From IMG/VR virus record IMGVR_UViG_3300028832_000001, positions 164,007-228,006 of that record: a DNA stretch of 64,000 nucleotides. One strand, written 5' to 3'. Positions 9,643 to 63,680 of this stretch are shown piece by piece. Below the pieces are notes generated by a model. The model saw only the letters and a program-made list of their open reading frames with translations, searched no databases and was not told the origin of the DNA. Position 1 is the stretch's first letter; each line of letters opens with the position of its first letter. The DNA comes from a virus (Duplodnaviria > Heunggongvirae > Uroviricota > Caudoviricetes). The translations under genes and the position numbers were made by a program.

Positions 9643-9645
9643 GGT

Positions 9646-11517: not shown

Positions 11518-11548
11518 TTTTTATCCTTTTTTATGTTTTACTGAATAT

Positions 11549-11577
11549 AATATAGAAAAAAGAACCACTTTTGTAAA
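11549..11577 (-). promoter_or_regulatory. sigma70-type promoter TTTACA-N17-TATATT inside terminator hairpin
   Basis: AAGAACCATT...AGTGGTTCTT-T run. Confidence 0.8.
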
Positions 11578-11617
11578 TGGTTCTTTTTAATTTTTATCTG
11601 ATGAATATTTTTGCAGA

Positions 11618-12901
11618 CTACGGTGTTTTAATCACGACCATTCCACCCTTCCACTGGTCAAGCGGAATATACTCAAATACGCTCTTAACGTATTCAACGT
11701 ATGCCGGAGATTCGCACATATTCTTTTCAGGGCAATCGCTAAGCTTAACGACATCTCTACCATTAACCTTAACAACCTTCATGACCATGGAAAGCGGCTT
11801 AATACCAGCAGTCTCAGTTACAAGATTTGCCATGAAATAAGTACCGATACCGAAGCTGATCTTGATACGACCATTGAAATGCTGTGCAATCTTGATAGCC
11901 TTATCAACATCGAGAGAGTCAGACCAGCAACCAGTCTTAGTAGTCGGGTCAATACCGAGTGCCTTATAATGGGCAATCAACATTTCACCCCAGACAATCG
12001 GGTCACCAGAGTCATGACGACATCCGTCGAACAACTTTGCATAGAACTTATCAAAGTCACGAAGGAACGGGATGAAACCAAAGTTATCAGACAATGCAAT
12101 ACCAAGATCGCCACGATATTCCTGGGTCCATGCATCAAATACAGCCTTCTGAGACTGACGAATAGGAACATCATCAAGACCCTGGAACAATGCATACATT
12201 TCATGTGCAAACGTTCCAATTGCCTTTACACCATATTTAATGGCGAAATAAAGGTTAGAAGTTCCGACAAAGCACTTACAGTTCTTAGCCATATAACCAA
12301 CTGCATAGTCCTGCCAAGCGAAAGAATGTCTACGGCGAGCACCAAAGTCAGCAAAACCGAACTTCAAGCCAGAATCGATTGCAGCATTAAACTTATCAAC
12401 TGCTTCCTTAAGATTTTGCTTTGCCTTTTCAAAATCAAATTCAAACTGACGGAGATAAAGTTCCTGGATGATTTCCATCACATAGATTTCAAACCAAGTA
12501 ACCTTGAGCTGAGGACCTTCTGCTTCAATTTCAAGATCGTCACCACGACGAGTAATCTTGATATACTTTCTCTTTAAACGGAAGTCTTCTAGCCAGTCAA
12601 CATAGTCAGGCTTAATGTAATAAATCTTGGACAATGCATCAAGTTCAAACGGTTGCCATCTAAGAGTACAAAGATGATCAACTTCACGGTTAACTGCATC
12701 AACCAAATAACCCAAATGAACATCCTTAGAGCGAAGCTTCCACTTCCACTTAGCCCATTCATTTGGACGCTTATGAAGTAAACATTGTGTCATACTGACC
12801 TTATAAATGTCAGTATCACTCAAATAATTGATGATATACTTTTCTTCATCAATCGGTTTATAATTCTTAATTTCGTCAATTTCTTTTTGAGAAAGTTCCA
12901 T
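11618..12901 (-). CDS. pncB: nicotinate phosphoribosyltransferase
   Basis: DTDIYKVSMTQ, FEI..ME, DFGARRRHS, GTSN, IGTFAHEM, FDGCRHDSGDP, FGIGT, KLSD.PEK. Confidence 0.92.
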   Translation of the reverse strand: MELSQKEIDEIKNYKPIDEEKYIINYLSDTDIYKVSMTQCLLHKRPNEWAKWKWKLRSKDVHLGYLVDAVNREVDHLCTLRWQPFELDALSKIYYIKPDYVDWLEDFRLKRKYIKITRRGDDLEIEAEGPQLKVTWFEIYVMEIIQELYLRQFEFDFEKAKQNLKEAVDKFNAAIDSGLKFGFADFGARRRHSFAWQDYAVGYMAKNCKCFVGTSNLYFAIKYGVKAIGTFAHEMYALFQGLDDVPIRQSQKAVFDAWTQEYRGDLGIALSDNFGFIPFLRDFDKFYAKLFDGCRHDSGDPIVWGEMLIAHYKALGIDPTTKTGCWSDSLDVDKAIKIAQHFNGRIKISFGIGTYFMANLVTETAGIKPLSMVMKVVKVNGRDVVKLSDCPEKNMCESPAYVEYVKSVFEYIPLDQWKGGMVVIKTP

Positions 12902-17481: not shown

Positions 17482-18473
17482 AGAGTAGAAATGTTTAAAA
17501 GTTCAGAAATTGTTTCGTGTCCAGTTATTTTATGGAAATTTTCTTTAGGCATATCGACCGAAATACTTACTTCCATATTAGGCATGTCTATATAAAGGTC
17601 AGGAACGATAATATTGCCTACTGTATCTCGTTTCTTAATTCCGTCAATATTATAAATTGAATCTGATGGAACATCAAACAAATGTAATACTCTTGCAGGA
17701 TTAATCTGTTTAAAACCAAGAATATCAAAGTTTATAATCTTGCACATGCTATGCAATGCCGGAATTTTCTTCTGTAACCAGGAAATATTCTTTTCGATTT
17801 CTTTCTTATACTTTTCAAAAAGAATCTTTCCTCGACCAGTATTCTTAAATCCTTGAATCAGAACCCTTCTTCCCTGTAAAGCAGGAAGATCATGCCTATT
17901 AAGAATACCAGCGATTACATGAATAACGACCCTATCACCAAGTTTGTCTATGAATTTAAAATCTTCCTTACAATGTGCGTCATGCAATGTAATTCCAAGG
18001 CCATAAATGAGTTCTTCATCGATTAATTTCTTAATAAGGTCTTTATTTTCTTTGATATGAATCTGATTAATATTAAGGTTAACGATGATTTGTCTTGCCT
18101 TGAGAATTCCCAGAATAGTTATAAGTTCTGGATGTGCCAAAGGATTTCCACCAGTAATATTAACTTCAAGTCCAGGATAGAAAGAATTAATCATAGGCAA
18201 CAGCTTTGACAAATCAGCATGCTTTGTTGCACTATTACTTCCTTCAGAACAGAACTGACAACCTGCATTACAAAAGTCTGTAATTTTTATAGTTATATTT
18301 TCTGGCGCTTCATAAATGAAATTTTCAGAATCTGTCTCAACCCAACGGTTGACACGAGTTCCTTTAGATCCTGGTTCGTTTACGTAGTAACCAGTCTCTT
18401 TGACCTTCGTACCGTCAGTATAAATAGTAGTACGATGATTGCCATTTATATAACTAGTTATAATATTACTCAT
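17478..18473 (-). CDS. radical SAM protein
   Basis: CNAGCQFC CxxxCxxC, ITGGNPL. Confidence 0.8.
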   Translation of the reverse strand: MSNIITSYINGNHRTTIYTDGTKVKETGYYVNEPGSKGTRVNRWVETDSENFIYEAPENITIKITDFCNAGCQFCSEGSNSATKHADLSKLLPMINSFYPGLEVNITGGNPLAHPELITILGILKARQIIVNLNINQIHIKENKDLIKKLIDEELIYGLGITLHDAHCKEDFKFIDKLGDRVVIHVIAGILNRHDLPALQGRRVLIQGFKNTGRGKILFEKYKKEIEKNISWLQKKIPALHSMCKIINFDILGFKQINPARVLHLFDVPSDSIYNIDGIKKRDTVGNIIVPDLYIDMPNMEVSISVDMPKENFHKITGHETISELLNISTL

Positions 18474-18498
18474 AAAAATACCTTATTTTTTCGATTTA

Positions 18499-18527
18499 AA
18501 TATAGCAAAAATAATTAGTTCTGTAAA
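18499..18527 (-). promoter_or_regulatory. sigma70-type promoter TTTACA-N17-TATATT
   Basis: 1 bp from a divergent late promoter. Confidence 0.8.
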
Positions 18528-18528
18528 C

Positions 18529-18536
18529 TATAAATA
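18529..18536 (+). promoter_or_regulatory. T4-like late promoter TATAAATA(ATATAA)
   Basis: Exact motif. Confidence 0.75.
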
Positions 18537-18566
18537 ATATAAAATGATAAAAAATTTGAGGATTTT

Positions 18567-19208
18567 ATGATAGATTTTTTAAACGAAGCATTAGATTTGG
18601 GTGATGTCGAGAATTACGACGATCGCAATAAGGCTAAGGGATCATCAACATTCCGTAGCTTTATTATGACCGAAAAGGCTGATGAAGCATATAATAATAG
18701 AATTACCAATAGAATTTGTGCAGAAATTCGTGATATTATGGGAGATATTTATATAGCAACTCCGACAGGTTCTCGTTCTGCAAATAAAATTCAGCTTATT
18801 CGTAGAGGTAAGGGTGGTGCTTATCAGTTCGAATTAAGAATTAATAGTGATGGAACTATTAGTGTTACTGATAATAGCCAAGCAAAGGGCTTTATCAAGA
18901 CACTTGATGACGGAACCAAGAAGTTTATCTTGTTAAATGCTCATGAATTCTATAGAACAAAGAAGACAAATGATGCTGGTGTTTCTGAACTTATCGAATG
19001 GTTAACTGATAATTATGATAAGTATGAAGCATCAAATGGTGCTGCAAGAGACAGACGTGAAGGAATTACTCAAGCTGCTCGCACTTCTTCCGCTATGGGA
19101 ACAAGAAGAACAGGTCCAAAACGTGTTACAGATATGATGAGACGTCACGGTATTAGCAGTGTTTCTGACTTTTTAAGAAACGGCGGCAATATTAGAGACC
19201 TTATCTAA
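18567..19208 (+). CDS. late hypothetical protein (short FLNE leader)
   Basis: GAGG RBS, late promoter, terminator; MIDFLNE|A resembles an L-x-E cleavage site. Confidence 0.7.
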   Translation: MIDFLNEALDLGDVENYDDRNKAKGSSTFRSFIMTEKADEAYNNRITNRICAEIRDIMGDIYIATPTGSRSANKIQLIRRGKGGAYQFELRINSDGTISVTDNSQAKGFIKTLDDGTKKFILLNAHEFYRTKKTNDAGVSELIEWLTDNYDKYEASNGAARDRREGITQAARTSSAMGTRRTGPKRVTDMMRRHGISSVSDFLRNGGNIRDLI

Positions 19209-19228
19209 TATATAATATACAGATTTTG

Positions 19229-19257
19229 AAAAACCAGTCAGTAACGGCTGGTTTTTT
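19229..19257 (+). terminator. intrinsic terminator
   Basis: AAACCAGTC...GGCTGGTTT-T run. Confidence 0.75.
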
Positions 19258-19259
19258 AT

Positions 19260-19267
19260 TATAAATA
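19260..19267 (+). promoter_or_regulatory. T4-like late promoter TATAAATA(ATATAA)
   Basis: Exact motif directly after terminator. Confidence 0.75.
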
Positions 19268-19295
19268 ATATAAAGAAAATTAATTGAGAGGAATT

Positions 19296-21053
19296 ATGAC
19301 TTTTAACGAAGCAAAAAAGCTATTAAAATCAAAGAATATGTATTTTATCAAGGAAAATGCTGCATTTGGCTCTCTCGAAGAGTATAAGGCCAAATTGAGC
19401 GACTTGTGGGCAGATAACTATACAACTGATGATCCAGATGAAGCATCTTTTGACGAAATTCTCGCCATGGATGAAGACGCTGAAGAATTGGTCAAGAGTT
19501 ATTACGAACGTGAACTTGACCCGACAGAAGCTGTTGAGGAATTACACGATACTTTAGCAAGTGTTCCGGAAAATACAGAAGATTTCGAAGAAGTTGTCGA
19601 TGATGAAGGTGAAGATGCTGAATATATCGATGATGAAGAAAATATTGATGCATTAGATGGCGATGATAACATCGCTTATGATGAATCTGATTTAGATAAC
19701 TTCGAAGACGATGAAAATTATGTCGCAGATGATCTCGAACCGGAGGAAGAATTGAATTTTGGTGAAGCTGTCAGATATTTAAAGAAACATGGCTATGCAC
19801 TTAATGAAGATGCACAGTTACTTTTGGAAGCATGGTATGATAATATCGGATTAGACGATACTGATAAGTTGTTTATCCAGAGAACCATGGAAACTTATGC
19901 TTCTGCTAAGTCTAAGCCAAGAACACTCGGTGGTCAACGTATTAAGGGTGGTTACATGACACCTGCAAAACGTGCTGATTACTATGGCAAGTTCGAACAT
20001 ATTTTGGAATTGATTGCAGATCGTCCGAATGCTACCAGAAATATGAGAACTGTTAGAAAGGAAATGGAACTTCTTCAGGATGATAACTGGTATCAGTTCA
20101 TTCATGAAAAGAACCCAGACCTTGACCAAGATACAATTGTTGAAATCTTCGGTCATGCAGCAATCGGTGAAACTGCTGACTTGACACCAGAAGAAGCTGA
20201 GCAGCGTCGTGCAGAACGTGCTGAAGCTGAACGTCGTGCAGCAGAAGCAGAACGTGAACGTCGTGAACGTGAAGCTGCAGCAGAACGCGAACGTCAACGT
20301 CGTGAAAACCCAGAACCAGAAGACATGATTACTCATCGTGAATTCGAAGAAACTCCGGAAACTGTTACTACCCGTCGTGTCACTCGTCACCGTATGAGAA
20401 CAGTTAACCGTAATTATACTGACCACTATGCATTCCCAGCTGCAACAATCAAGATTAATATCGATGTTACTGGCGACGATGAATCCAAGGCAGAAGTTGA
20501 TGAAATTATTTCTGCAATCAAGGATAAGTTACGTCTTGCTTACGAAGATGATGAAGGTAAGTATGCAATGTGTAATGTTGATGCAGCAGTTGTTGATGTC
20601 GAAGAAGATGGTGCTACAAAGCAAGAATATCATATCGTTATCAAGATGCCTGCAGAAATCAAGGAAGAAATTGCTCAGTTCGCTCAGGTCGAACTTGAAG
20701 ATACATTCCCGTTCGTTAATTCTGAACATCCAGAAGATTCTGTTTATGAATTCGATAATACTGGAAACCGTGATGAAATCGAAGACGAAACTTACGAATA
20801 TGATGAACCAGTTGTTCAGAGAGGTCGTAGACGTCCACAGACTACTGGAGCACGTCGTGTTAGCAGAACACCTCGTTGGAGAGTTCACTATACATTAGCT
20901 GATGAAAACGGTCGTGATAGTAGAATTCAGAGAACTGTTATTGTTCCTGCAGCAACTGCTGAAGATGCTAAGAACAAGGTTGAAAACCCAGAAGACATCG
21001 ATAATGCATACGCAACTGGTGTATTCGCTGTAACAGGTGTTGATAGAGTCTAA
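19296..21053 (+). CDS. large acidic protein with two copies of the leader motif (putative capsid-internal polyprotein)
   Basis: ATG at 19296 after GAGAGG; MTFNEAKKLLKSKNMYFIKE and internal LNFGEAVRYLKKHGYALNE; E/A/R-rich helix. Confidence 0.75.
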   Translation: MTFNEAKKLLKSKNMYFIKENAAFGSLEEYKAKLSDLWADNYTTDDPDEASFDEILAMDEDAEELVKSYYERELDPTEAVEELHDTLASVPENTEDFEEVVDDEGEDAEYIDDEENIDALDGDDNIAYDESDLDNFEDDENYVADDLEPEEELNFGEAVRYLKKHGYALNEDAQLLLEAWYDNIGLDDTDKLFIQRTMETYASAKSKPRTLGGQRIKGGYMTPAKRADYYGKFEHILELIADRPNATRNMRTVRKEMELLQDDNWYQFIHEKNPDLDQDTIVEIFGHAAIGETADLTPEEAEQRRAERAEAERRAAEAERERREREAAAERERQRRENPEPEDMITHREFEETPETVTTRRVTRHRMRTVNRNYTDHYAFPAATIKINIDVTGDDESKAEVDEIISAIKDKLRLAYEDDEGKYAMCNVDAAVVDVEEDGATKQEYHIVIKMPAEIKEEIAQFAQVELEDTFPFVNSEHPEDSVYEFDNTGNRDEIEDETYEYDEPVVQRGRRRPQTTGARRVSRTPRWRVHYTLADENGRDSRIQRTVIVPAATAEDAKNKVENPEDIDNAYATGVFAVTGVDRV

Positions 21054-52286: not shown

Positions 52287-52616
52287 TTAGTCTTCATACC
52301 ATTCATCGCAGGTAAGGTCAGCGAGCAAGTTCTGTACACAAGTATCAGTTTCACACGAGTTAAACTTGACACCATCTTCATATGCATCTTTTGCCGCACG
52401 ATCATCATTATAGTCTTCTCCGGCATATCCTATGATAAATGCTCGCTTAAAGTTATTATAATCGGCATCATCACCCCAGTATTTATACGAGCGGTCCCAG
52501 AGTTCGTCAAAAATCTCTTCAGGGGTATATGATAATCTTTCATTCAGTTGTCTGGTTTCCTTGATAAGCCTGTACCCTTGTTTCTGGAGTAATTGTTTTG
52601 CTTCAGCTAAATTCAT
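52287..52616 (-). CDS. acidic leader-family protein
   Basis: MNLAEAKQLLQKQGYRLIKE|TRQLNE. Confidence 0.75.
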   Translation of the reverse strand: MNLAEAKQLLQKQGYRLIKETRQLNERLSYTPEEIFDELWDRSYKYWGDDADYNNFKRAFIIGYAGEDYNDDRAAKDAYEDGVKFNSCETDTCVQNLLADLTCDEWYED

Positions 52617-54841: not shown

Positions 54842-55252
54842 TTATACCGAAATCATATATCTTTTACGTTCTTCGTCTAACATTTTCATCGACTTTAGTT
54901 TTTCGTTAATTCTCTGTGCAACAATAGGTCTTGCTCTCATCTCGCTACTTACTAGCCAGTCATTATATAATTCAACCGGCAAATCTTTAAATGAATCGCC
55001 AAAATATGTAACATTAAAATCCCTATGCTGAAGTTCGTTATAAATTTCTATATAACGTTTCTTTAGATATAGTAATTTATTATAGAAAAACTTAACGTGA
55101 CCTCTACCTAAAGTAAATTCTTTTGGAATATTGTCTAGATCTGCTTTCCCAGATTTAATAATATTCGGAATTCTCTTAATTTCTCTATGTTCAGCCAATA
55201 AGTGTTTATTGCACAATTCTAATGGCAATATTCCTGCATTAATTCGTGTCAT
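54842..55252 (-). CDS. denV: pyrimidine dimer DNA glycosylase / endonuclease V
   Basis: MTRIN...L..KHLLAEHREIKRI, FTLGRGHVKFFYNKL. Confidence 0.9.
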   Translation of the reverse strand: MTRINAGILPLELCNKHLLAEHREIKRIPNIIKSGKADLDNIPKEFTLGRGHVKFFYNKLLYLKKRYIEIYNELQHRDFNVTYFGDSFKDLPVELYNDWLVSSEMRARPIVAQRINEKLKSMKMLDEERKRYMISV

Positions 55253-55260
55253 AATATTAA

Positions 55261-55289
55261 AATATAATAAAAATAAGGGTTTTTGAAAA
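55261..55289 (-). promoter_or_regulatory. promoter TTTTCA-N17-TATATT inside terminator hairpin
   Basis: ATAAGGGTTTT...AAAACCCTTAT stem; weaker -35. Confidence 0.6.
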
Positions 55290-55323
55290 CCCTTATCTTA
55301 ATATTAAATACTTTCAGTTACCT

Positions 55324-56418
55324 TTATAGAGATTCGATTAACTTAAAAGCTGCTTCTATCGTATCGTCCATATCGAAATATTTGTAATTACCTAATCTTC
55401 CAACAAATCTGGTCTTTTCATTAGGAATAGCCTTATACTTTTCATATAGAGCATTGTTCTTCTCATTATTGACCGGATAATAAGGAACATCTCCCTTCTT
55501 CCATTCGGAACTGTATTCCCTGCTGATAATCGTCTTGTCGGATCCCATATTGTTGAACCACTTGTGCTCGATGATTCTCGTATACGGTTCCTCGTTAGAA
55601 GTATAGTTGACTACAGCATTTCCCTGATAATTTTCCTTATCCAACGTCTCAGTCTCGAACCTCACGGAACGGTATTCCAGCGGTCCGTAGCAATAGTCGT
55701 AATACTCATCGATACAGCCGGAATAGAAAACATGATCAGTCATTGATTCCCATTTTTCCTTATCCTTCAGGAAATCAGTATTCAAAAGAATATCTGCACC
55801 CTCGAACATCCTCTCTATAATCTTCGTGTAACCTTCTACTGGAATTCCCTGATAAGTATCATTGAAATAATTATTATCGTATGTAAACCTTAAAGGAAGT
55901 CTCTTGATGATTTCTGGAGGTAATTCTGTACATTTCCTTCCCCATTGTTTTTGTGTGTACCCTTTAATGAGTTTTTCATACATCTTCTTACCGACCAAGT
56001 TGATAGCCTGTTCTTCTAAGTTCTTAGGATTATCTGTATAACAATCTCTTGTTTCCTTAATAATCTTATTCTTAGCTTGTTCTGGAGTAATAACACCATA
56101 AAGACGATTAAATGTATTCATATTAAAAGGAAGATTATAGATTTCGTCTTTGTAGTTAGCAATAGGTGAATTTATAAAAGAATTAAACTCACCAAAAGAT
56201 GTTATAAAATCCCAAATTTTTTTATTAGAACAATGAAAAATGTGGCTTCCAAAAACGTGGACATCAATGTTTTCTCTTCTTTCTGTATAGCAATTACCTG
56301 CAATATGAGGTCTTTTTTCAATAACTAATACTGATTTACCTTGTTTAATAAAATGATGAGCAAGGACTGCATTGAATAGTCCTGCACCTATTAATAATAT
56401 GTTATAATGATGTTTCAT
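55324..56418 (-). CDS. glf: UDP-galactopyranose mutase
   Basis: IGAGLFNA, EKRPHIAGNCY, HVFGSHIFH, YQGIP, YTRIIEHK, PYYP, GRLGNYKYFDMD; start 56418 or 56487. Confidence 0.95.
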   Translation of the reverse strand: MKHHYNILLIGAGLFNAVLAHHFIKQGKSVLVIEKRPHIAGNCYTERRENIDVHVFGSHIFHCSNKKIWDFITSFGEFNSFINSPIANYKDEIYNLPFNMNTFNRLYGVITPEQAKNKIIKETRDCYTDNPKNLEEQAINLVGKKMYEKLIKGYTQKQWGRKCTELPPEIIKRLPLRFTYDNNYFNDTYQGIPVEGYTKIIERMFEGADILLNTDFLKDKEKWESMTDHVFYSGCIDEYYDYCYGPLEYRSVRFETETLDKENYQGNAVVNYTSNEEPYTRIIEHKWFNNMGSDKTIISREYSSEWKKGDVPYYPVNNEKNNALYEKYKAIPNEKTRFVGRLGNYKYFDMDDTIEAAFKLIESL

Positions 56419-56470
56419 AAGGGTAAATATAATAAATTTATTGTTATTTACAGTGTTATTAAATTTATGT

Positions 56471-57490
56471 TTATTTGAAACTTTCAATAGTCCATTTAAA
56501 CAAATTATTTATATTCACAACAGGTTTCCAACCAAGTTCTTTTATTTTATCAACATTCATTATGGCAAGTTTATATGGCAAATACTGTAACTTAGCTGCT
56601 TCATTAGAAAATACTACTTTTGTTTTTGTATTAGGAACTAATGATACAATCAAATTACATAAATCACGAATACTAATTAAATTATCTATATTTGCAACAT
56701 TATACATTTCATCATTTCCTTTATCCATAATAAGAAATGCTGCATTTATTACATCAGACACATAAGTATAAGTTCTCATAGCATTTCCACTAGAATGTAA
56801 TACTATATCATCATCATTTAAAGCACAATCTATAAATTCAGCAAAGCCTCGTCCATCTTTTAAAGAAATTCCTGGACCTATTGTATGACATAAACGAACC
56901 CCACAATATGAAATTCCATATTGTTGTTTATATGTAGTTAGCATTGTTTCGCATAATCTTTTTGCTTCAGGATAACATGCACGAGAATTTAAATGCTGCA
57001 TTATACCCATATCAGTTTCTTTAATCAAATCATCTTGTTTCCAATCACCATAGATTTCTACTGTAGAAACATAAAATACTCGTTTTGTACTGTGTGTTCT
57101 AGCACATTCTAAAACATTGTGTGTTCCATTTATGTGTGACCACATTGTATCAACTGGTGTATCATAATCTTTAGGTGCAGCTGGACCTGCAGTATGGAAA
57201 ATAAAATCTATTTTATCATTATAGTTAATTTCTGTATTAACATCTTGAAACAAAAATTCTACATTTGGAAAATCTAATATATTACCAAATACTTCAGCAA
57301 CTTTTTCTTTATTTCTTGCTAAACCTATAACTTTCATATTTAAATTATATTTCAAATCAATATCTACTAAAGTATCTAAAATATATCTACCAAGTCTTCC
57401 AGTAGCACCTGTAATAAGAACTGTTGAATCCCTATACATTAACCAATTAACTGAACTATTTGTAATTATATTAAAATCACGTTTTTCCAT
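56471..57490 (-). CDS. NAD-dependent epimerase/dehydratase (extended SDR)
   Basis: ITGATGRLG, YVSTVEIYG, YPEAK (YxxxK), RTYTY. Confidence 0.85.
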   Translation of the reverse strand: MEKRDFNIITNSSVNWLMYRDSTVLITGATGRLGRYILDTLVDIDLKYNLNMKVIGLARNKEKVAEVFGNILDFPNVEFLFQDVNTEINYNDKIDFIFHTAGPAAPKDYDTPVDTMWSHINGTHNVLECARTHSTKRVFYVSTVEIYGDWKQDDLIKETDMGIMQHLNSRACYPEAKRLCETMLTTYKQQYGISYCGVRLCHTIGPGISLKDGRGFAEFIDCALNDDDIVLHSSGNAMRTYTYVSDVINAAFLIMDKGNDEMYNVANIDNLISIRDLCNLIVSLVPNTKTKVVFSNEAAKLQYLPYKLAIMNVDKIKELGWKPVVNINNLFKWTIESFK

Positions 57491-57496
57491 ATAAAC

Positions 57497-58072
57497 CTAT
57501 TTATTTTTAATAAATTCTATATAAATCTTTTCTGCTAAACCACGATTATATAATGGTTTGTCATTATCACGAATTATTTGTTTTAAATTTGTTAGTTCTG
57601 AATATATTTTATCAACACCAACAATAATGCTATTTTTATTTAAATCATTTAACAGTTTTAATTGCTGATATGTTAAATTGGTTTCCGGAACATTATACCA
57701 ATTAGCAAGAATAAAAATTGGTTCTTCTTTTATATTTAACATTCGTTCTAATCTTTCTTCATATTTCTGTATAATATATTCCCATATTTTATTATAAAAT
57801 ACATCAAAATCTTTTTTAATAATTTTAGTTGCTTTTGGGTCAAATTTATAATGAATATATTTTATTATTATTTTATCATCAATTTTAAGACTAAAATTCC
57901 AATTATTATCTTTTAATAATTCAAAATTCTTAAAATTTATATTTTCAAAATTTTGTATCATATAATACATTGAATTAAAATCTATCAAACCCCACATAAA
58001 AGGATTATCGAATTTTTTTTTCATACAAAGTTTATATAAATACGCACCTACACAACTATTAACAATATACAT
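57497..58072 (-). CDS. polysaccharide-locus protein (DUF1919/DUF1796-like)
   Basis: IVNSCVG..LY.....FDNPF.W motif. Confidence 0.45.
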   Translation of the reverse strand: MYIVNSCVGAYLYKLCMKKKFDNPFMWGLIDFNSMYYMIQNFENINFKNFELLKDNNWNFSLKIDDKIIIKYIHYKFDPKATKIIKKDFDVFYNKIWEYIIQKYEERLERMLNIKEEPIFILANWYNVPETNLTYQQLKLLNDLNKNSIIVGVDKIYSELTNLKQIIRDNDKPLYNRGLAEKIYIEFIKNK

Positions 58073-58078
58073 ATTGCC

Positions 58079-58810
58079 TCAATTCAATCCAAATACATTT
58101 TTATTTTCATCTAATTCTAATAATGATTTTAATGTATAATAATCATCTGGTGTAGTAATTTTTATATTTTTATTGTTATCTTTAATTAAATGTATTTTAT
58201 TTCCCAAATAAGTATAAATTAAAGCTGAATCTAATAAAGGAATTGGAGAATTTAAAGTATTGTATTTGTCATAAATTTTATTTAACAATGATAGTTTAAA
58301 TGTTTGAGGTGATGTTAAACTATATGTGTCATCTCTTTTTTTAAAATCTTCAAAATTAGCTTCTTCATTTTGTGTTATAACTACAGTTTCAATTACAGGA
58401 TGAACTGTTATAGCACAATCATATTTTAATGCTGTTTCTACATTTTCACTAATAACATTTTCTGTAATAAGTGGTCTAACCCCATCGTGAATTACGATTA
58501 TATCATTGTCATTAGCACCATTAGATTTTAAATAAGATAAACCATTTAAAATACTTTCTTGTCTATCTTTTCCACCATTAATAATTACTTTAATCTTTTT
58601 TAGTTCATATTGTTTAATTAGTTTTTCCAAATGTTCTTTCCAAGAACTATGACAAGATATAATTATTTTATCTATATCTATACAATTTTCAAATTTTTCC
58701 AATGTATAAATTATAATAGGTTTACCAAAAACTTTTAAAAATTGTTTTGGCATACCTGTATTTCTCATACGCTGACCAACACCACCAGCTAAAATTAAAC
58801 CATAATTCAT
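58079..58810 (-). CDS. IspD/TarI-like polyol-phosphate cytidylyltransferase
   Basis: ILAGGVGQRM, PKQFL, RQESI, IHDGVRP, NIKITTPDD. Confidence 0.9.
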   Translation of the reverse strand: MNYGLILAGGVGQRMRNTGMPKQFLKVFGKPIIIYTLEKFENCIDIDKIIISCHSSWKEHLEKLIKQYELKKIKVIINGGKDRQESILNGLSYLKSNGANDNDIIVIHDGVRPLITENVISENVETALKYDCAITVHPVIETVVITQNEEANFEDFKKRDDTYSLTSPQTFKLSLLNKIYDKYNTLNSPIPLLDSALIYTYLGNKIHLIKDNNKNIKITTPDDYYTLKSLLELDENKNVFGLN

Positions 58811-58812
58811 AA

Positions 58813-59790
58813 TTATACCTCAAACTCACATTTATTTGGAAATTTAGCATCAAATAACATTGTTAATCTATCTTTAATCAAATTAAAATTATCAGTTTTT
58901 ATTAAACAATCATTTAAACACACAACTTTATAATTCATCATTGATTCCATAATTTTCTTATAATTATCATTATGTGGTTCAAGATAAATCTTAATATCAG
59001 TTTCTTTTTTATTTATGAAATTATTATTATTCAATCGTATATAACGATAAATCCAATCTTCCGAAACATTAGTAGATGTTCTAATTTTATCTTGTGGTTT
59101 ATTTGCTTTAATTAAATCTTCGTATATATTTGTACAAATTGTTTTTACTTCTGTTTTATTACAAGAAATACCGGTATGTAAATTTCTATATAAATTAAAT
59201 TTACCAGTATACTTTTGAGAAATCTTTAAACAATTCAATACTATATTTTGAAAGAAATCTAATTTTTGCCTTCCATTATTCCAAGTTATATTATGTTTAT
59301 TTAACCATTCTTCGTGAACAGGATTTGAATTTATTTGTTTAGATAATTCAGAAGAATCTACTGGTATATTATCAACAAAGAAATCGTCTGAATCAGTCTT
59401 ATTTACAATAAATACATCGTCATTTAACCAAATGAAATTTTCAGCTAAATCATTTAGCTTCCACACATTTCTAAAATAGTGCATACTATTATAAGTTGGC
59501 AAGTATTCTGGTTCAATAAATTCATTATGGTAATGAATTTGTAATTTAGGACAATTCGTATTTAACCAACTTGGTATTTGCGTTTTTGAATATAGTAATA
59601 AATGTACTTTTCTAACCCATTGAGCATTTTCTGAAATACATCTAAAGAAATATGGTAATAAACCAAAATCTCTTATTCTACTTGGATCTTTATCACCATT
59701 GTATTTCTTACAAATTTCTTTATAATCATTAAACCAAACATCATCATTTGGATTTACCCACGGAATTACTATATCAATTTCACCATTCAT
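58813..59790 (-). CDS. Stealth family hexose-1-phosphate transferase
   Basis: CR1 IDIVIPWVNPND, CR2 LPTYNS / FIWLNDD, CR4 VCLND. Confidence 0.85.
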   Translation of the reverse strand: MNGEIDIVIPWVNPNDDVWFNDYKEICKKYNGDKDPSRIRDFGLLPYFFRCISENAQWVRKVHLLLYSKTQIPSWLNTNCPKLQIHYHNEFIEPEYLPTYNSMHYFRNVWKLNDLAENFIWLNDDVFIVNKTDSDDFFVDNIPVDSSELSKQINSNPVHEEWLNKHNITWNNGRQKLDFFQNIVLNCLKISQKYTGKFNLYRNLHTGISCNKTEVKTICTNIYEDLIKANKPQDKIRTSTNVSEDWIYRYIRLNNNNFINKKETDIKIYLEPHNDNYKKIMESMMNYKVVCLNDCLIKTDNFNLIKDRLTMLFDAKFPNKCEFEV

Positions 59791-60410
59791 ATTTGACGAA
59801 CCCTATTATAATAAATTTTATATCCATTATATTCTAGCCAAGCACCAAAAAATGATTCGGCTAAATAACCAATTATTCTAGGTATATTATAAAATTCTCT
59901 TGCTTCAAATTTTGTTAAAATACTAAATAATTCGTCACAGTATTTGTTTATTATTTCTTTTTTACATATAAACATATTACACTGTGCTTCATATTTCTTC
60001 ATTAAATATACTCTTGTATATTTTTGTAATTCTTCATCATCTATATTAGATATGAATTTATAAAGAATTTTAAGCCAGCCATGTCCTCGATAAATACCAG
60101 TCCCATTATATTTGGTTTTGAAAAAATACTTCTTACAAATAACATCATTATCTTTAAGGATGTTTAGAACTTCTTGTTCGGATAAAATTTTATTTTTGCC
60201 ATTAACAAAGTATCTTCTATAATGTTCAAGCCCGACTATATCATCATTACAGTTTTTCCATAAATGATATAATCCAGTTAATTCGCAATACCAGGGATTC
60301 AAAAAATCTATGTTATCTTCATTATGCTTAACATTTATTAAAAACTTTGTTCTAATGTTATTAAGGGGTAAAAATCTATTTTTTGTACTTCCAATTACAT
60401 AAATTTTCAT
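59787..60410 (-). CDS. DUF4422 (GT111-like, galactofuranosyl) glycosyltransferase
   Basis: NPWYCELTGLY.LWKN...VGLEHYRRYF, CNMFI, GYLAE. Confidence 0.8.
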   Translation of the reverse strand: MKIYVIGSTKNRFLPLNNIRTKFLINVKHNEDNIDFLNPWYCELTGLYHLWKNCNDDIVGLEHYRRYFVNGKNKILSEQEVLNILKDNDVICKKYFFKTKYNGTGIYRGHGWLKILYKFISNIDDEELQKYTRVYLMKKYEAQCNMFICKKEIINKYCDELFSILTKFEAREFYNIPRIIGYLAESFFGAWLEYNGYKIYYNRVRQI

Positions 60411-61114
60411 TATCTACCCATTCTCTTTGTCGGTCCAAACATATACTGACAAGGACTTACTAAATCATGTTGGAATTTCTTAATATCGCAATTAACGATT
60501 TTATATTGTTTGTATTCTAACCAAGCGCCAAACATAAATTCACTAAAATAACCTTCTCTACGTAGTGTATTTGTACCTGGTCCAATAGGGCAAATTTTTT
60601 CAAAATCAGTTATTACATTAAAGAAAAATTCCATCCATTCATTAAAAATCTTTTTAGTTCCAATAAACAAATTACATGCATATAATTTTTGCCCACATAA
60701 AAACTTTTTAAAATAATCAGCAAAATTTTTATCTTTATTTTCAACAACTTTAAGAAAATGTGGTAATGTTCCTTTTACACATTTATTTAATTCATCTTTA
60801 AGAAAACGAGAACCCCAAGGTGTAGGGTAAGCATAGCCACCAGCAATTATATCACCAGTAGAGAGTTTCTCTTTAATTTCATCTTCTGTAATTTTATGCC
60901 CATCTTTCCAGAAATATGCTCGATAATGTTCCAATCCAACAATTTCATCGTCAACATGTTTCCACAAATAATAAAGACCAGTCAATTCGCAATACCAGGG
61001 ATTCAAAAAATCTATATTGTCTCCTTCATGTGGCTGATCTATAAGGAATTTTTCACGGATATTATCCAAGGGTAAAAACTTATTCTTACTACTTCCAACT
61101 ACATATATCTTCAT
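60410..61114 (-). CDS. DUF4422 (GT111-like) glycosyltransferase
   Basis: NPWYCELTGLYYLWK...VGLEHYRAYF, CNLFI, GYFSE. Confidence 0.8.
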   Translation of the reverse strand: MKIYVVGSSKNKFLPLDNIREKFLIDQPHEGDNIDFLNPWYCELTGLYYLWKHVDDEIVGLEHYRAYFWKDGHKITEDEIKEKLSTGDIIAGGYAYPTPWGSRFLKDELNKCVKGTLPHFLKVVENKDKNFADYFKKFLCGQKLYACNLFIGTKKIFNEWMEFFFNVITDFEKICPIGPGTNTLRREGYFSEFMFGAWLEYKQYKIVNCDIKKFQHDLVSPCQYMFGPTKRMGR

Positions 61115-61144
61115 ATTTTCACTTAATAATTAAACGTTTTATTT

Positions 61145-61152
61145 TATTTATA
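61145..61152 (-). promoter_or_regulatory. T4-like late promoter TATAAATA
   Basis: Exact motif in gap before 61114 gene. Confidence 0.65.
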
Positions 61153-61153
61153 A

Positions 61154-61846
61154 TTACATAAATTCATTCTTTTCATTAAATATTTCTTTAAAGAAATTCT
61201 TTATAATATTTGATTCTGAAATTTTTTTATATTCAATACCTAATGTTTTCTTTTGTCCATAATATCCACCTTTAACTACTAAACTTTCCCATTCAGGATG
61301 TTTAATAACTGGTGTTCCAGCTAATAATAAACGTAAACCGTAAAATAAATCATCATGTTGAATAAAGCTTTTATCAAACCAATCTTCATGAATCCAAGCC
61401 ATACAATTTGGTGGAAATACTCTGATTCTCCAAGGAACTTTAATTGCTCCTACTTTACCTACTCTTCCAGCATGACATGCATAAGGTTTTTTAATATATT
61501 CTTTATAACAAACATCAACTAATGTATCAGAATAAATAGTATCATCACCAATAGATATAATTGGTAATTTATAATACTTTCTATTTACCGGATTATATTT
61601 CTTTAAAGCTTTTGTATTTCTTTTTGTATATAAAATTTCAAAATTTTCTAATTTTTCATCCATTAAACGTATATCTTCAGGAACTTCATTTTTATTTTTA
61701 AATTCTTCTGTTGATAATACAAGAACTACTTTAAATGGAATCTTTGTTTTTTGATTAATTATAGAATGTAAACATATAGGAAATTTTGGATTATAAATTC
61801 TACCTTTATATGTTGTTAATGCTACAATTATTTTATAATCTTTCAT
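61154..61846 (-). CDS. putative glycosyltransferase (GT-A-like)
   Basis: IVALTTYKGRI, KKY.P, IISIGDD..Y, HDDLF. Confidence 0.65.
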   Translation of the reverse strand: MKDYKIIVALTTYKGRIYNPKFPICLHSIINQKTKIPFKVVLVLSTEEFKNKNEVPEDIRLMDEKLENFEILYTKRNTKALKKYNPVNRKYYKLPIISIGDDTIYSDTLVDVCYKEYIKKPYACHAGRVGKVGAIKVPWRIRVFPPNCMAWIHEDWFDKSFIQHDDLFYGLRLLLAGTPVIKHPEWESLVVKGGYYGQKKTLGIEYKKISESNIIKNFFKEIFNEKNEFM

Positions 61847-61853
61847 ACTAAAC

Positions 61854-61861
61854 TATTTATA
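61854..61861 (-). promoter_or_regulatory. T4-like late promoter TATAAATA
   Basis: Exact motif after a hairpin, 7 nt before ATG. Confidence 0.7.
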
Positions 61862-61907
61862 AAAAATGATTATGTTTTAAACATAACCATAAATTTTTAT
61901 TGCTCGA

Positions 61908-62117
61908 TTACCTTTCCCAATCCAGAGTATTGTCATTACAGTCTATATTAAGGTCATCAGTAAAATAATTACTACCTGTTGCTATATAGAATTCTTTAGA
62001 ACAGGATAATACTTCAATATTATCACCTTCATGTGGTTGATCTATAAGGTATTTTTCACGGATATTATCCAAAGGCAAAAATTTATTTTTACTACTTCCA
62101 ACTACGTATATTTTCAT
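61908..62117 (-). pseudogene. chimeric relic: DUF4422 N-terminus fused to C-terminus of 63483..63680
   Basis: First 34 aa nearly identical to 60410..61114; remainder matches IEVLSCPKEYHIATGQNYFTDDLNIDC. Confidence 0.8.
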
Positions 62118-62118
62118 A

Positions 62119-62910
62119 TCACTTTTTCAAATCACTTAAATGTTTAACCTTTAATTGATTATATGTATCTTCAGTAACGACCACATCAATTTCTTGAACA
62201 GAATCCATACCATATTCATGCATATACTTAAAGAAAAATGCAGTAGTTAATCTTTCAGCTATAAAACCAAATAATCTAGCTTGATATTCATAAGTATTAT
62301 TTGGATAGAAAGACTTTTCTATAAACTTTTCTCTATGCAATCCTATATACTTTATCATATTTGTATAGTCATTATTAACACCGATTACATTGTCAAATTC
62401 TTCTAAGACTTCAAATATAAATTTGCAATATTCATTAAATAATGTCTTAGGAAGAATAAACATATTATATGGGAAATAAACATGACTATCTAGCATTTCG
62501 ATAAATGCTGGATAATATTCTGGTTTTTTCGTTCTAATGATATTCATTGTATTTAATAAATCATTTGAATTATGACAAATATCATATTGCATATAGTTAT
62601 TATATGCATTCATCAAATGCTTTGCAATAACAGGTTTTGTGAGTTCAGGAATATCGTTTAAGAATTCAAAATAACGTCTATAATGTGATAAACCAATCCA
62701 GTCTGTTTGTAATTCAGGATGTTTCCATACATAATAAATTTGGGTCAATTCTGACCACATTCTATTATCAAGAAATCCGTCTGATTTAACAAGTTCCAAT
62801 GATGATTCATTCTTAATATCTTTATCAGAAATTAACTTATAAACAGGATTATTTACGCCAATGTCTTTATAGTCTTTATGACAGCAAGTATATATGGTTA
62901 TATTATTCAT
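62119..62910 (-). CDS. DUF4422 (GT111-like) glycosyltransferase
   Basis: YTCCHK, WSELTQIYYVWK, IGLSHYRRYF, PYNMFI, RLFGFIAERL. Confidence 0.85.
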   Translation of the reverse strand: MNNITIYTCCHKDYKDIGVNNPVYKLISDKDIKNESSLELVKSDGFLDNRMWSELTQIYYVWKHPELQTDWIGLSHYRRYFEFLNDIPELTKPVIAKHLMNAYNNYMQYDICHNSNDLLNTMNIIRTKKPEYYPAFIEMLDSHVYFPYNMFILPKTLFNEYCKFIFEVLEEFDNVIGVNNDYTNMIKYIGLHREKFIEKSFYPNNTYEYQARLFGFIAERLTTAFFFKYMHEYGMDSVQEIDVVVTEDTYNQLKVKHLSDLKK

Positions 62911-62935
62911 GTGTTCACTGCTTTAATTAACAATA

Positions 62936-62943
62936 TATTTATA
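62936..62943 (-). promoter_or_regulatory. T4-like late promoter TATAAATA
   Basis: Exact motif after hairpin, heads the glycan locus. Confidence 0.7.
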
Positions 62944-62990
62944 AAAATAAAAATGGTTATTTTTAAATATAACCATAAATTTTTATTGCT

Positions 62991-63293
62991 CTATTTTCTC
63001 CATGTAATAAACAAATCATACCATTCCATATCTAGATCAATATTACAATTTGCTTCTGCTACTACTTTAAATCCTGCTTCATCTAATAGACGCATGATTT
63101 CGTCAACTATATCTTTTCGGTTACACAAATCTTTTAATGAATAAACTGTTGCGTCAGTATAATGCATAACTTGTCTTATCTTTTGTTCAATATCATTAAG
63201 ATAGTCAAAGACAAGTAGGTTGAATGTGTTATGGTGTCCTGGTTTTTCGTCTTCTGCTGAATATCTGCTATTTCTTGCTTCTTCTGCAGTCAT
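62991..63293 (-). CDS. hypothetical protein
   Basis: 100 aa, AAGGAG RBS. Confidence 0.7.
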   Translation of the reverse strand: MTAEEARNSRYSAEDEKPGHHNTFNLLVFDYLNDIEQKIRQVMHYTDATVYSLKDLCNRKDIVDEIMRLLDEAGFKVVAEANCNIDLDMEWYDLFITWRK

Positions 63294-63482: not shown

Positions 63483-63680
63483 TTAAACATATCCATAAAT
63501 TTTTATTGCTCGATTACCTTTCCAGTCCAGAGTATCGTCATAGCAATCTATATTTAGGTCATCGGTAAAATAATTCTGACCAGTAGCTATATGATATTCT
63601 TTAGGGCAGGATAATACTTCAATATCACCGTGTTTTTCTTGATACTCTTGTAAAATCTTTATAAGTCTTGATACTTTCAT
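63483..63680 (-). CDS. hypothetical protein
   Basis: 65 aa; MKVSRLIKILQEYQEKHGDIEV type. Confidence 0.7.
   Translation of the reverse strand: MKVSRLIKILQEYQEKHGDIEVLSCPKEYHIATGQNYFTDDLNIDCYDDTLDWKGNRAIKIYGYV

Follow-up and report, generated by a model that had tools for sequence, protein, structure and literature searches.

The glycan locus described here belongs to a jumbo phage of the cattle rumen with a T4-like genome of 416 kb, from which a stretch of 64,000 nucleotides (the window) was analysed. The phage is a distant relative of T4; its genome contains matches to the T4-type proteins gp4, 14, 15, 17, 18, 20, 21, 23, 43, 44, 46, 47, 62, regA and uvsW, a gp45-like clamp (phrog_223, 8e-11) and a weakly matching gp55-like protein (phrog_234, 4e-5). 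The operon occupies window positions 55324-62910 on the minus strand and is made up of nine intact genes and a chimeric relic. At 26.4%, its GC content falls in the bottom 1% for the genome, and the local value is about 25%. It is surrounded by a long run of small non-structural minus-strand ORFs, and the glf end adjoins denV (54842-55252, PF03013), at most 2 kb away. Runs of small ORFs of this kind are early in T4. The nine genes, and the families assigned to them in a preliminary description of this DNA, are borne out by Pfam, TIGRFAM and NF profile scores for seven of them and by homologues or a modelled fold for the other two, and none of the cluster proteins contains a hydrophobic (membrane) segment. 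In order of transcription the contents are:

62119..62910, minus strand, DUF4422/GT111-like glycosyltransferase c, 263 aa (PF14393, 112 bits)
61908..62117, minus strand, 69-aa chimeric relic (from compared translations)
61154..61846, minus strand, phage-specific GT-A-fold glycosyltransferase, 230 aa (AF2 model, Foldseek)
60410..61114, minus strand, DUF4422/GT111-like glycosyltransferase b, 234 aa (WbbM 6u4b match, 2e-9)
59787..60410, minus strand, DUF4422/GT111-like glycosyltransferase a, 207 aa (PF14393, DUF4422)
58813..59790, minus strand, Stealth-family phosphotransferase, 325 aa (CR2, 88 bits; GNPTAB, CpsY)
58079..58810, minus strand, IspD/TarI-like cytidylyltransferase, 243 aa (PF01128, NF001183)
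57497..58072, minus strand, DUF1919-like protein, 191 aa (homologues carry PF08942)
56471..57490, minus strand, extended SDR of the CDP-ketose reductase type, putative CDP-alditol synthase (PF01370, 8V4G/8V4H)
55324..56418, minus strand, Glf, UDP-galactopyranose mutase, 364 aa (TIGR00031, PF03275)

Glf is a full-length equivalog match to TIGR00031 (392 bits, against a cut-off of 304) and matches PF03275 at 2e-80. It is made up of NAD_binding_8 and GLF domains with an FAD-binding N-terminus, and its start has been corrected from TTG 56487 to ATG 56418. The cytidylyltransferase matches PF01128 (1e-38) and the 'ribitol-5-P cytidylyltransferase' model NF001183 (210 bits versus 166), and its best relatives are TarI enzymes (4JIS, 6e-47; 6XHP, 3e-45). 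The SDR matches PF01370 at 1e-39; its Epimerase domain begins at residue 24, following an N-terminal extension of about 22 residues, and its best solved relative is the Campylobacter jejuni CDP-6-D-glucitol synthase 8V4G (2e-42). The two genes form the neighbouring PF01128 and PF01370 pair, with a helical N-terminal extension on the SDR, by which CDP-alditol pairs are recognised, and such a pathway in the phage is supported by these family matches. The preliminary description had pointed to a CDP-polyol and suggested looking for ribitol- or arabinitol-phosphate; the pathway stands. Because the cytidylyltransferase is closest to TarI and the SDR to a CDP-6-D-glucitol synthase, sequence alone does not choose the substrate, and ribitol, arabinitol, glucitol and mannitol are all candidates for the alditol. 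Between the two genes sits that of the 191-aa protein, which has no Pfam match of its own; the guess that it is DUF1919-like holds by way of PF08942 in its homologues, and its Cys7, Asp31 and His74 are invariant.

The three DUF4422 proteins score 112 to 120 bits, above the Pfam cut-off. The gene for DUF4422_a overlaps its neighbours by 1 to 4 nt, and a homologue of DUF4422_c (56% identical) heads the locus of a related phage, L008. A supply of UDP-galactofuranose (UDP-Galf) feeding GT111-type Galf transferases, as read initially from the DNA, is supported by the TIGR00031 score, by the match to WbbM (6u4b) and by the published pairing of such enzymes (PMC12269835). The 230-aa protein has no Pfam match, and its AF2 model (pLDDT 89) aligns with WrtF, TarP and RmlT at a Foldseek probability of 1.0; as modelled, it has the GT-A fold that had been suspected. 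Within its G100-D101-D102 motif, D102 is invariant and G100 and D101 occur in at least 90% of sequences. Viral sequences make up most or all of the nearest Atlas clusters, and homologues of the protein were found only on large (260-470 kb) metagenomic contigs that resemble giant phages, none of them named bacterial. The Stealth protein exceeds the cut-off for CR2 (88 bits versus 39) and matches the catalytic domain of GNPTAB (1e-14) and CpsY (3e-10), so the phosphotransferase behind the proposed phosphodiester role is present; CR1 (21.8 bits) and CR4 (18 bits) are below threshold, and CR3 gave no match in the Pfam profile search. A homologue search found no close bacterial homologues of the SDR, IspD-like or DUF4422 genes. 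The relic is chimeric, as first described: its translation joins about 33 residues of the DUF4422_b N-terminus (gene at 61114) to a remainder matching the ORF at 63483-63680, and in tblastn only its first 35 to 38 residues match, to DUF4422 genes of relatives.

Transcription of the operon is predicted from a set of minus-strand features:

62953..62976, minus strand, AT-rich hairpin (-11.3 kcal/mol, z -2.75), followed by a U-run at 62944-62952 and then box 1
62936..62943, minus strand, late-type TATAAATA box 1, 25 nt upstream of the ATG start of DUF4422_c, with which the cluster begins
61866..61890, minus strand, second hairpin/U-run cassette (-11.0 kcal/mol, z -3.46), ahead of box 2
61854..61861, minus strand, late-type TATAAATA box 2, 7 nt upstream of the GT-A gene's ATG start
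61145..61152, minus strand, late-type TATAAATA box 3, 30 nt upstream of the DUF4422_b ATG start
55251..55299, minus strand, terminator hairpin with an early promoter in its loop and 3' side (-16.1 kcal/mol; 27.6 bits in the position-weight scan)

The three exact boxes face into the genes as originally reported. Of the four gaps in the cluster that exceed 30 nt, three hold a box, where about 0.07 boxes would be expected, and a fourth copy at 56506-56513, inside the SDR gene and 87 nt before glf, is probably due to chance. Across the whole window 23 copies were observed against 14 +/- 3.7 expected. Genome-wide, co-directional intergenic DNA contains 60 copies in the forward and 3 in the reverse orientation, with a Markov expectation of about 9. 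The box is found 22 to 66 nt upstream of gp4, 15, 18, 20, 21, 23 and a 1014-aa fibre gene, all of which are devoid of early promoters for tens of kb; gp44, the gp45-like gene, gp46, gp47 and thyA show the opposite pattern and are served by early promoters. The cluster genes follow the structural-gene pattern, with boxes 7 to 30 nt upstream and the nearest early promoter 13.6 to 16.7 kb off. Judged by its distribution, TATAAATA is a genuine signal of this phage, tied to one orientation, and behaves as a late promoter.

The early promoter motif, TTKACA-N17-TATATT, is present in 115 copies genome-wide. Scanning with a position-weight matrix derived from 104 early promoters gave no hit on the minus strand between 55294 and 76508, in agreement with the earlier failure to see this motif at the cluster head; no early promoter lies within 13.6 kb upstream of the cluster, and the nearest one upstream is at 76508-76551. 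The hairpin at 62953..62976 with its U-run is a candidate terminator or insulator, and about 60 nt of 62944-62992 are repeated in the cassette near 61866..61890. Downstream, the promoter embedded in the terminator at 55251..55299 reads TTTTCA-N17-TATATT and starts denV where the glycan operon ends. The predicted operon is bounded, then, by a hairpin and U-run before boxes 1 and 2 and by a terminator with early promoter right after glf. Because the insulator hairpins are AT-rich and weak, with few G-C pairs, read-through from 76508-76551 is possible. Also counting against late control, box 2 leaves just 7 nt before its ATG, with no Shine-Dalgarno sequence ahead of the GT-A gene, and the gp55 homologue is weak. 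The RNA-derived material listed is one contig piece from an RNA library.

Comparison with related giant phages strengthens the case for late control. In seven related loci (L008, L005, L007, L006, L049/L050, L003 and L060) a late box precedes the whole locus or the gene at which the locus comes into view, and it is kept although gene content and neighbours differ. A box in the same position as box 1 heads the locus in L008 and L005, and the 7-nt spacing of box 2 recurs in L049 and L050. Orientation bias, insulators, the promoter profile of the structural genes and the related loci together support the late-promoter control claimed initially. The content of the locus is shuffled among these phages: some carry a Galf-only kit, others have a small TagD-like cytidylyltransferase in place of the IspD and SDR pair, and their Stealth alleles are only 33-63% identical. 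The Stealth gene adjoins a cytidylyltransferase gene in most variants.

The locus is best explained as a self-contained, soluble, late-transcribed glycan-synthesis operon, the late control and the chemistry being supported at the level of gene families. Glf would turn host UDP-galactopyranose into UDP-galactofuranose, while the TarI-like cytidylyltransferase and the CDP-ketose-reductase-type SDR would produce a CDP-alditol. The phage-specific GT-A enzyme and the three GT111-type transferases are expected to add hexose or Galf residues, and the Stealth enzyme to put in a phosphodiester link; since a cytidylyltransferase gene adjoins its own in most variants, it may be the user of the CDP-activated alcohol. 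Transcription from gp55-type late promoters behind hairpin/U-run insulators is proposed, so that the enzymes would appear together with the virion proteins.

The target is most likely a cytoplasmic acceptor made by the phage; a protein displayed on the virion surface, for example a fibre or a head decoration, is the probable candidate. Favouring a phage-made acceptor are the lack of hydrophobic segments, the absence of flippase, polymerase and transporter genes in or beside the cluster, and the absence from the whole genome of a Bac_transf priming enzyme (PF02397; the WecA/MraY family falls outside that search). The largely viral character of the GT-A family favours it further, as do a GT2 and a GT2_4 gene that immediately follow the 1014-aa fibre gene in another part of the genome. 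If so, particles would leave the cell with a Galf/alditol-phosphate glycan that varies in composition from one related phage to another in a serotype-like manner. Decoration of the virion is the best reading of the operon's glycan and is held tentatively, the virion step being drawn from the late timing. T4 late promoters serve non-structural genes too. Counting against a virion target, the locus is remote from the structural genes, amid small ORFs near denV, and the characterised relatives of its GT111 (WbbM) and Stealth enzymes serve cell-surface polymers, their acceptors being lipid- or glycan-linked and not proteins. The tail-fibre or capsid genes that were to be sought nearby as acceptors are not by the locus: the nearest T4-like structural match is about 115 kb off and the T4-like structural block 160 kb. 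Nor is a teichoic-like polymer, as first envisaged, borne out, as the whole genome has no TagF-like (PF04464) or LicD (PF04991) polyol-phosphate transferase at E <= 0.1.

The serious rival to virion decoration, which we consider unlikely, is remodelling of the host envelope. Here the soluble enzymes would act at the inner membrane face on host undecaprenyl-linked intermediates, and host export would display a Galf/alditol-phosphate-modified polymer on the infected cell, either masking receptors and thereby keeping progeny or competitors from adsorbing to infected cells and debris, or altering the glycocalyx. Every characterised enzyme of the GT111, Stealth, TarI and CDP-alditol types works in a pathway for LPS, capsule or teichoic acid, and the GT-A model is similar to glycosyltransferases of wall teichoic acid, among them the prophage-encoded TarP. 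Missing priming and export genes are expected where the host supplies such functions, serotype-like module swapping is typical of surface-polysaccharide loci, and the low GC content suggests imported genes. However, late-only, insulated transcription fits poorly with superinfection exclusion in a lytic T4-like phage, because the new polymer would be made, exported and displayed only shortly before lysis. The restriction of GT-A homologues to giant-phage-like contigs and the lack of close bacterial homologues for the other genes searched also speak against a host-envelope role.

It is improbable that the glycan is made by the phage for a fate outside the virion, as a free or secreted polymer or on a glycosylated host or phage non-structural protein, whether to stabilise the infected cell, to bind plant fibre or to act as a decoy. 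The position of the locus among non-structural genes and the DUF1919-like Cys/His protein, which has no assigned role, could be accommodated in this way, but an export or anchoring function is absent and late co-expression with virion genes is left unexplained. We know of no precedent for such a glycan in tailed phages.

Very improbable is hypermodification of DNA, with the transferases decorating a modified phage base with Galf and further groups that block restriction. To our knowledge the CDP-alditol pathway has no precedent in DNA modification, and DNA replicated early would go unprotected if expression is late only, although post-replicative glycosylation could still finish before packaging. 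In its favour, the cluster enzymes are all soluble, and a phage UDP-galactopyranose mutase has been tied to glycosylated 5-hydroxycytosine in a T4-like group (PMC13326640). Yet the only thymidylate-synthase-family gene (one PF00303) scores as a true ThyA (TIGR03284, 269 bits versus 108), and the PF00303 search found no hydroxymethylase or 5-hydroxy-dCMP synthase candidate in the genome. The folds also differ, being GT111, GT-A and Stealth here and GT-B-like in known DNA glycosyltransferases (PMC13326640). Scarcely credible is the idea that the TATAAATA boxes arise simply from the very high AT content of the DNA and that the operon is read early from upstream promoters: the low local GC, the weak window-wide enrichment, the intragenic copy and the G-C-poor hairpins lend it something, but it is opposed by the orientation bias, the boxed cluster gaps and the box kept at the head of seven related loci with different neighbours.

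Several known systems share parts of this arrangement. Mycobacteriophages with glycosylated virions have one to a few glycosyltransferase genes beside their capsid genes and use host sugar donors. The rumen phage, for which the virion is a candidate target, differs in having nine genes, which include two pathways of donor synthesis and a phosphotransferase and which lie far from its structural module. Glycosylation of the mycobacteriophage capsid and tail tube (Freeman et al. 2023), as summarised in PMC12619734, involves phage glycosyltransferases expressed with virion genes and glycan on particle proteins, which is the mechanism proposed here. The galactan systems of Klebsiella O2a (WbbM/Glf) and Kingella kingae (pamABC) likewise pair Glf with DUF4422/GT111 Galf transferases (PMC12269835); those enzymes build a lipid-linked O-antigen or LPS galactan that is exported by the cell, whereas in the phage the three GT111 paralogues stand alone and genes for export or priming are missing. 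Rhizobium phage RL38JI of a T4-like group (Pootjesviridae) also encodes its own Glf, proposed to serve galactosyl-5-hydroxycytosine DNA (PMC13326640), but that system depends on a 5-hydroxy-dCMP synthase resembling thymidylate synthase and on GT-B DNA glycosyltransferases, neither of which was found in the rumen phage.

Adjacent PF01128 cytidylyltransferase and PF01370 SDR genes, the SDR with an N-terminal extension, are shared with capsule pairs such as C. jejuni HS5.18/HS5.17 (CDP-6-D-glucitol; structure 8V4G, PMC10918830) and S. pneumoniae Mnp1/Mnp2, and with TarI/TarJ and Bcs1 (CDP-ribitol). In contrast to these, the phage cytidylyltransferase is closest to TarI, and relatives swap the pair for a small TagD-like enzyme. 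Among the Stealth hexose-1-phosphate transferases, a family that forms phosphodiesters and includes the meningococcal capsule polymerases, GNPTAB and CpsY, the phage protein shares the CR2 core and the GNPTAB and CpsY matches. Unlike them, it is short, lacks a detectable CR3 and is tied to cytidylyltransferases rather than to UDP-HexNAc supply, and its donor may differ from theirs. A further likeness, one of general design, is with the Mimivirus and chlorovirus virion glycosylation clusters, in which whole nucleotide-sugar pathways and glycosyltransferases act in the cytoplasm on particle proteins, although the hosts are eukaryotic and the sugars different. DUF1919/DUF1796-like proteins, too, are common in Nucleocytoviricota clusters.

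The glycan locus consists of nine intact genes and one gene relic on the - strand, densely packed with several overlaps of 1-4 nt. In the order of transcription, it reads as follows.

62119-62910, - strand: DUF4422_c, first
61908-62117, - strand: 69-aa relic, second
61154-61846, - strand: GT-A protein (230 aa), third
60410-61114, - strand: DUF4422_b, fourth
59787-60410, - strand: DUF4422_a, fifth
58813-59790, - strand: Stealth, sixth
58079-58810, - strand: IspD/TarI-like cytidylyltransferase, seventh
57497-58072, - strand: DUF1919-like protein (191 aa), eighth
56471-57490, - strand: extended SDR, ninth
55324-56418, - strand: Glf, last

The start of glf is the ATG at 56418, which corrects the preliminary description. 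The nine intact - strand genes which that description had listed are borne out by gene calls and by Pfam/NCBIfam searches, in which Glf (equivalog), cytidylyltransferase, SDR, Stealth CR2, and all three DUF4422 proteins score highly. DUF4422 is the GT111 galactofuranose (Galf)-transferase module of WbbM (PMC12269835), and WbbM (6u4b) is a direct sequence match of DUF4422_b. The cytidylyltransferase has TarI enzymes as its nearest relatives and scores above the cut-off of the ribitol-5-phosphate subfamily in NCBIfam. The best solved relative of the SDR is C. jejuni's CDP-6-D-glucitol synthase (8V4G/8V4H, 2e-42), an enzyme with a distinctive N-terminal helix whose substrate is the CDP-ketose from a neighbouring PF01128 cytidylyltransferase (PMC10918830). 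The phage SDR is similar in that an N-terminal extension of about 22 residues matches this helix. As one member of the pair resembles a CDP-glucitol synthase and the other TarI, their predicted product is therefore a CDP-alditol, the identity of which is unreadable from sequence. The Galf/polyol-phosphate chemistry first proposed for the locus is thus supported at the family level as a putative Galf/CDP-alditol chemistry, but the known families of polyol-phosphate transferases, TagF-like and LicD, are absent from the genome. Also absent from the genome are a Bac_transf priming enzyme and any DUF4422 gene beyond the cluster, and there is only one GT2 elsewhere.

The two remaining proteins are uncharacterised enzymes whose genetic context is clear. 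The 230-aa protein has a confidently predicted GT-A fold (pLDDT 89) resembling WrtF, TarP, RmlT, and TarS, with an invariant Asp102 inside a conserved Gly-Asp-Asp motif. In the Atlas, the clusters closest to it consist mostly or entirely of viral proteins, and homologous sequences are found on large metagenomic contigs resembling giant phages. The 191-aa protein is DUF1919-like by transitivity and has invariant Cys7, Asp31, and His74. Its predicted fold (pLDDT 94) matches only two structures, 2g6t and HI_1244; as both are uncharacterised, assigning a function from the fold match was dropped. None of the cluster proteins contains a membrane segment.

The phage record is 415,750 bp long with direct terminal repeats and a GC content of 34%; the window covers its bases 164007-228006. 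Searches with T4 proteins by phmmer and BLASTP matched gp43, gp44, gp62, gp46, gp47, regA, nrdG, and uvsW, and also gp4, gp14, gp15, gp17 (in pieces), gp18, gp20, gp21, and gp23; the phage is a distant relative of T4. The matches to gp17, the large terminase, are split across three genes (genome 104931-105851, 300756-301532, and 45228-46283). A gp55-like late sigma (weak, 4e-5) and a gp45-like clamp (8e-11) were matched through PHROGs, which was required because T4 gp55 and gp45 queries by BLASTP and phmmer alone were too weak. Near-identical DNA is present in several bovine gut metagenomes. When the cluster and 24 kb of the window were compared with GenBank phages by megablast, no match emerged.

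Promoters in this genome fall into two clear classes. The early one, TTKACA-N16-18-TATAWT, has 115 copies, nearly all co-oriented with genes, and often occupies a terminator hairpin's loop together with its 3' side. The -35 TTKACA lies in or beside the hairpin loop and a T-run precedes TATATT (consensus AAGGGTTTACAAAAACCC...TTTTTnCTATATT). In each unit, the end of a transcript and the start of the following one are therefore combined. Late genes have an analogous cassette made up of a hairpin, a U-run, and TATAAATA. The late box TATAAATA has 143 copies in the genome, of which 102 are in the intergenic 9%, and it is unlikely that these boxes arose by chance, given that co-directional intergenic DNA contains 60 in forward and 3 in reverse orientation, with about 9 expected genome-wide. 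The box stands 22-66 nt upstream of gp4, gp15, gp18, gp20, gp21, gp23, and a 1014-aa fibre gene, and these structural genes have no early promoter for tens of kb. The opposite pattern is found for gp44, gp45-like, gp46, gp47, and thyA.

The glycan genes share the pattern of the structural genes, and the observation made in the preliminary description is therefore confirmed. The three boxes it had reported facing the cluster (62936-62943, 61854-61861, and 61145-61152) precede DUF4422_c by 25 nt, the GT-A gene by 7 nt, and DUF4422_b by 30 nt, and its claim that no early promoter heads the cluster also holds, with none of at least 12 bits on the - strand between 55294 and 76508. A fourth TATAAATA at 56506-56513 had been missed; it was rejected as a glf promoter since it is inside a gene and 87 nt upstream. 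Boxes 1 and 2 each stand directly behind a hairpin and U-run (both hairpins about -11 kcal/mol; z -2.8 for the first, -3.5 for the second), and the operon ends at a stronger hairpin carrying the denV early promoter (window 55251-55299). The gene served by that promoter, directly 3' of glf, encodes a DenV-like pyrimidine-dimer DNA glycosylase (window 54842-55252, - strand; PF03013, 4e-14). In related giant phages, TATAAATA precedes the first locus gene, or the first that the contig covers, in L008, L005, L007, L006, L049/L050, L003, and L060, and the unusual 7-nt spacing before the GT-A gene recurs in L049/L050. Late control of the glycan operon is a prediction well supported by this sequence logic and conservation. 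A search of RNA data with the whole locus as query listed no run. A 1.85-kb query matched a small share in one bovine metatranscriptome run, namely a single 210-nt contig piece (62696-62905), which may be DNA carry-over and from which strand, start, level, and timing are unreadable.

The locus also bears traces of its assembly. The 69-aa relic is a DUF4422 N-terminus fused to the tail of an ORF like that at 63483-63680. An intergenic cassette of about 60 nt (AGCAATAAAAATTTATGGTTAT...hairpin...TATAAATA) is present twice, at window 61862-61912 and 62944-62992, such that the cassette heading the operon recurs after the relic. Together, the relic and repeated cassette mark the scar of a duplication or insertion and point to DUF4422_c having been inserted by recombination within the cassette. 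The GC content of the cluster is 26.4% compared with 34.2% for the genome, sixth lowest among 817 genome windows. By gene, glf is at the genome average (34%), the polyol module at 20-24%, and the DUF1919-like gene at 19.6%, a pattern that fits an older Galf core and a polyol module imported later. In a sheep-gut run, one contig joins window 55283 to 62930 and omits the entire locus, which hints, very weakly, at a variant lacking the cluster; the joint has only about 20 nt on one side, and all such joints were distrusted.

Glf homologues of 80-86% identity occur on five IMG/VR contigs, and further large contigs were reached through GT-A, Stealth, and DUF1919 homologues. The related loci contain the following genes.

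L008 (G001, 424-kb complete relative): DUF4422_c, GT-A, DUF4422, and Glf only; Stealth and IspD absent from the whole genome
L007: Glf and DUF1919, convergent with Stealth-IspD-SDR
L049/L050, part 1: GT-A (83% identical), two small ORFs, DUF4422 (73%), DUF1919
L049/L050, part 2: Stealth allele at only 33% identity, 132-aa PF01467 cytidylyltransferase (best NCBIfam match TagD, below cut-off), Glf (82%)
L061: two DUF4422 genes, Stealth (63%), small cytidylyltransferase
L060 (679-kb contig): content as L061 plus an aminotransferase
L003 (259-kb phage): two GT-A genes, Stealth, GT2; without a cytidylyltransferase

Thus, a Galf core is joined with a variable phosphodiester/CDP-alcohol module. In 5 of 6 loci, Stealth has a cytidylyltransferase as its neighbour, although the kind of cytidylyltransferase changes; strict co-occurrence was rejected as it fails in L003/G003. 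To our knowledge, Stealth enzymes have so far been known only as hexose-1-phosphate transferases. Because the adjacency is conserved, we infer that Stealth is the best candidate for the enzyme using the CDP-alditol, and its use of CDP-activated alcohols would explain why a cytidylyltransferase persists next to it despite the change in type. For the family, this linkage raises a new donor specificity that can be put to the test. On L060, Glf and the small cytidylyltransferase are separated by a class V aminotransferase (11025-12098), suggesting a further, different CDP-activated (amino)alcohol. On L049, the glycan locus encloses an ORF of 118 aa (9532-9888) that has a late box of its own. It shares 36% identity with window ORF 52287-52616 and could be an acceptor or cargo protein.

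Pattern scans found no relative of the Stealth protein on viral contigs and no close relative of the SDR, DUF4422_b, or IspD-like protein in bacterial genomes. Only Glf has bacterial relatives (48-62% identity), all from gut Bacillota and Mollicutes-like MAGs, which hardly inform on the host. A 472-kb contig of a related giant phage, L052, encodes a 1003-aa protein with Fib_succ_major domains (17652-20663; Fibrobacter succinogenes paralogous family), at a distance of 5 kb from genes for GT-A, DUF4422, and TupA-like ATP-grasp proteins, and this protein is a hint that the host of the lineage is a Fibrobacter.

The most economical reading is that the glycan decorates the virion, although we would place it somewhat short of an even chance. 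It fits enzymes that are late, insulated, soluble, and led by a phage-specific glycosyltransferase, and it fits a genome that also has glycosyltransferases behind a fibre gene.

Genome 105883-112766 (883-7767 on contig L054), - strand: 1014-aa fibre with late box, then GT2 (273 aa), a 258-aa unknown, and GT2_4 (287 aa)

The GT2 and GT2_4 genes directly downstream of the fibre form a second, fibre-linked glycosyltransferase set. The GT2_4 protein has a weak FKTN_N (Fukutin-N) match (E 0.004); a role as ribitol-phosphate transferase is unsupported, with no PDB sequence match. Mycobacteriophage virion glycosylation, as described in PMC12619734, is a precedent supporting virion decoration. Alternatively, the product may be used to remodel the host envelope. 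We judge this rather unlikely, yet it is a serious rival, because the characterised relatives of the cluster enzymes all have surface-polymer intermediates as substrates and because the variation of the locus is like that of serotype loci. Glycosylation of DNA has a recent Glf-linked precedent (PMC13326640), but it is highly improbable here as the defining base-modifying enzyme is missing from this phage, and the single thymidylate-synthase family gene of the genome is a true ThyA.

The weight of the finding rests mainly on where the glycan ends up. If it is the host surface, this would be a case of a lytic giant phage remodelling the envelope at a late stage. If it is the particle, phages would gain a 'serotype' of an antigenic or adhesive kind, with a bearing on phage-host recognition, on sticking to rumen fibre or mucus, and on immune recognition of phages. 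In its fullest form, which we consider unlikely, the proposal is that the particles of a ruminant-gut lineage of giant phages carry a coat of Galf-alditol (or glycerol)-phosphate glycan resembling teichoic acid or capsule. Late phage enzymes in the cytoplasm would carry out its entire synthesis, and the locus would evolve as bacterial serotype loci do and would have recruited Stealth for CDP-activated alcohols.

Phage-encoded glycosyltransferases are common, and sugar-modification kits with Glf and DUF4422 are already known from phages and are not new. We know of no complete late-regulated glycan pathway described for tailed phages; the one proposed here comprises two routes for donor synthesis together with five transferases and one phosphotransferase. 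What is new is the full nine-gene pathway with its CDP-alditol route and Stealth enzyme, the explicit wiring of late promoters and insulators conserved across relatives, and the swapping of modules in a serotype-like manner. If the product is carried on the particle, virion glycosylation would reach beyond the simple case of mycobacteriophages and include polymers resembling capsules.
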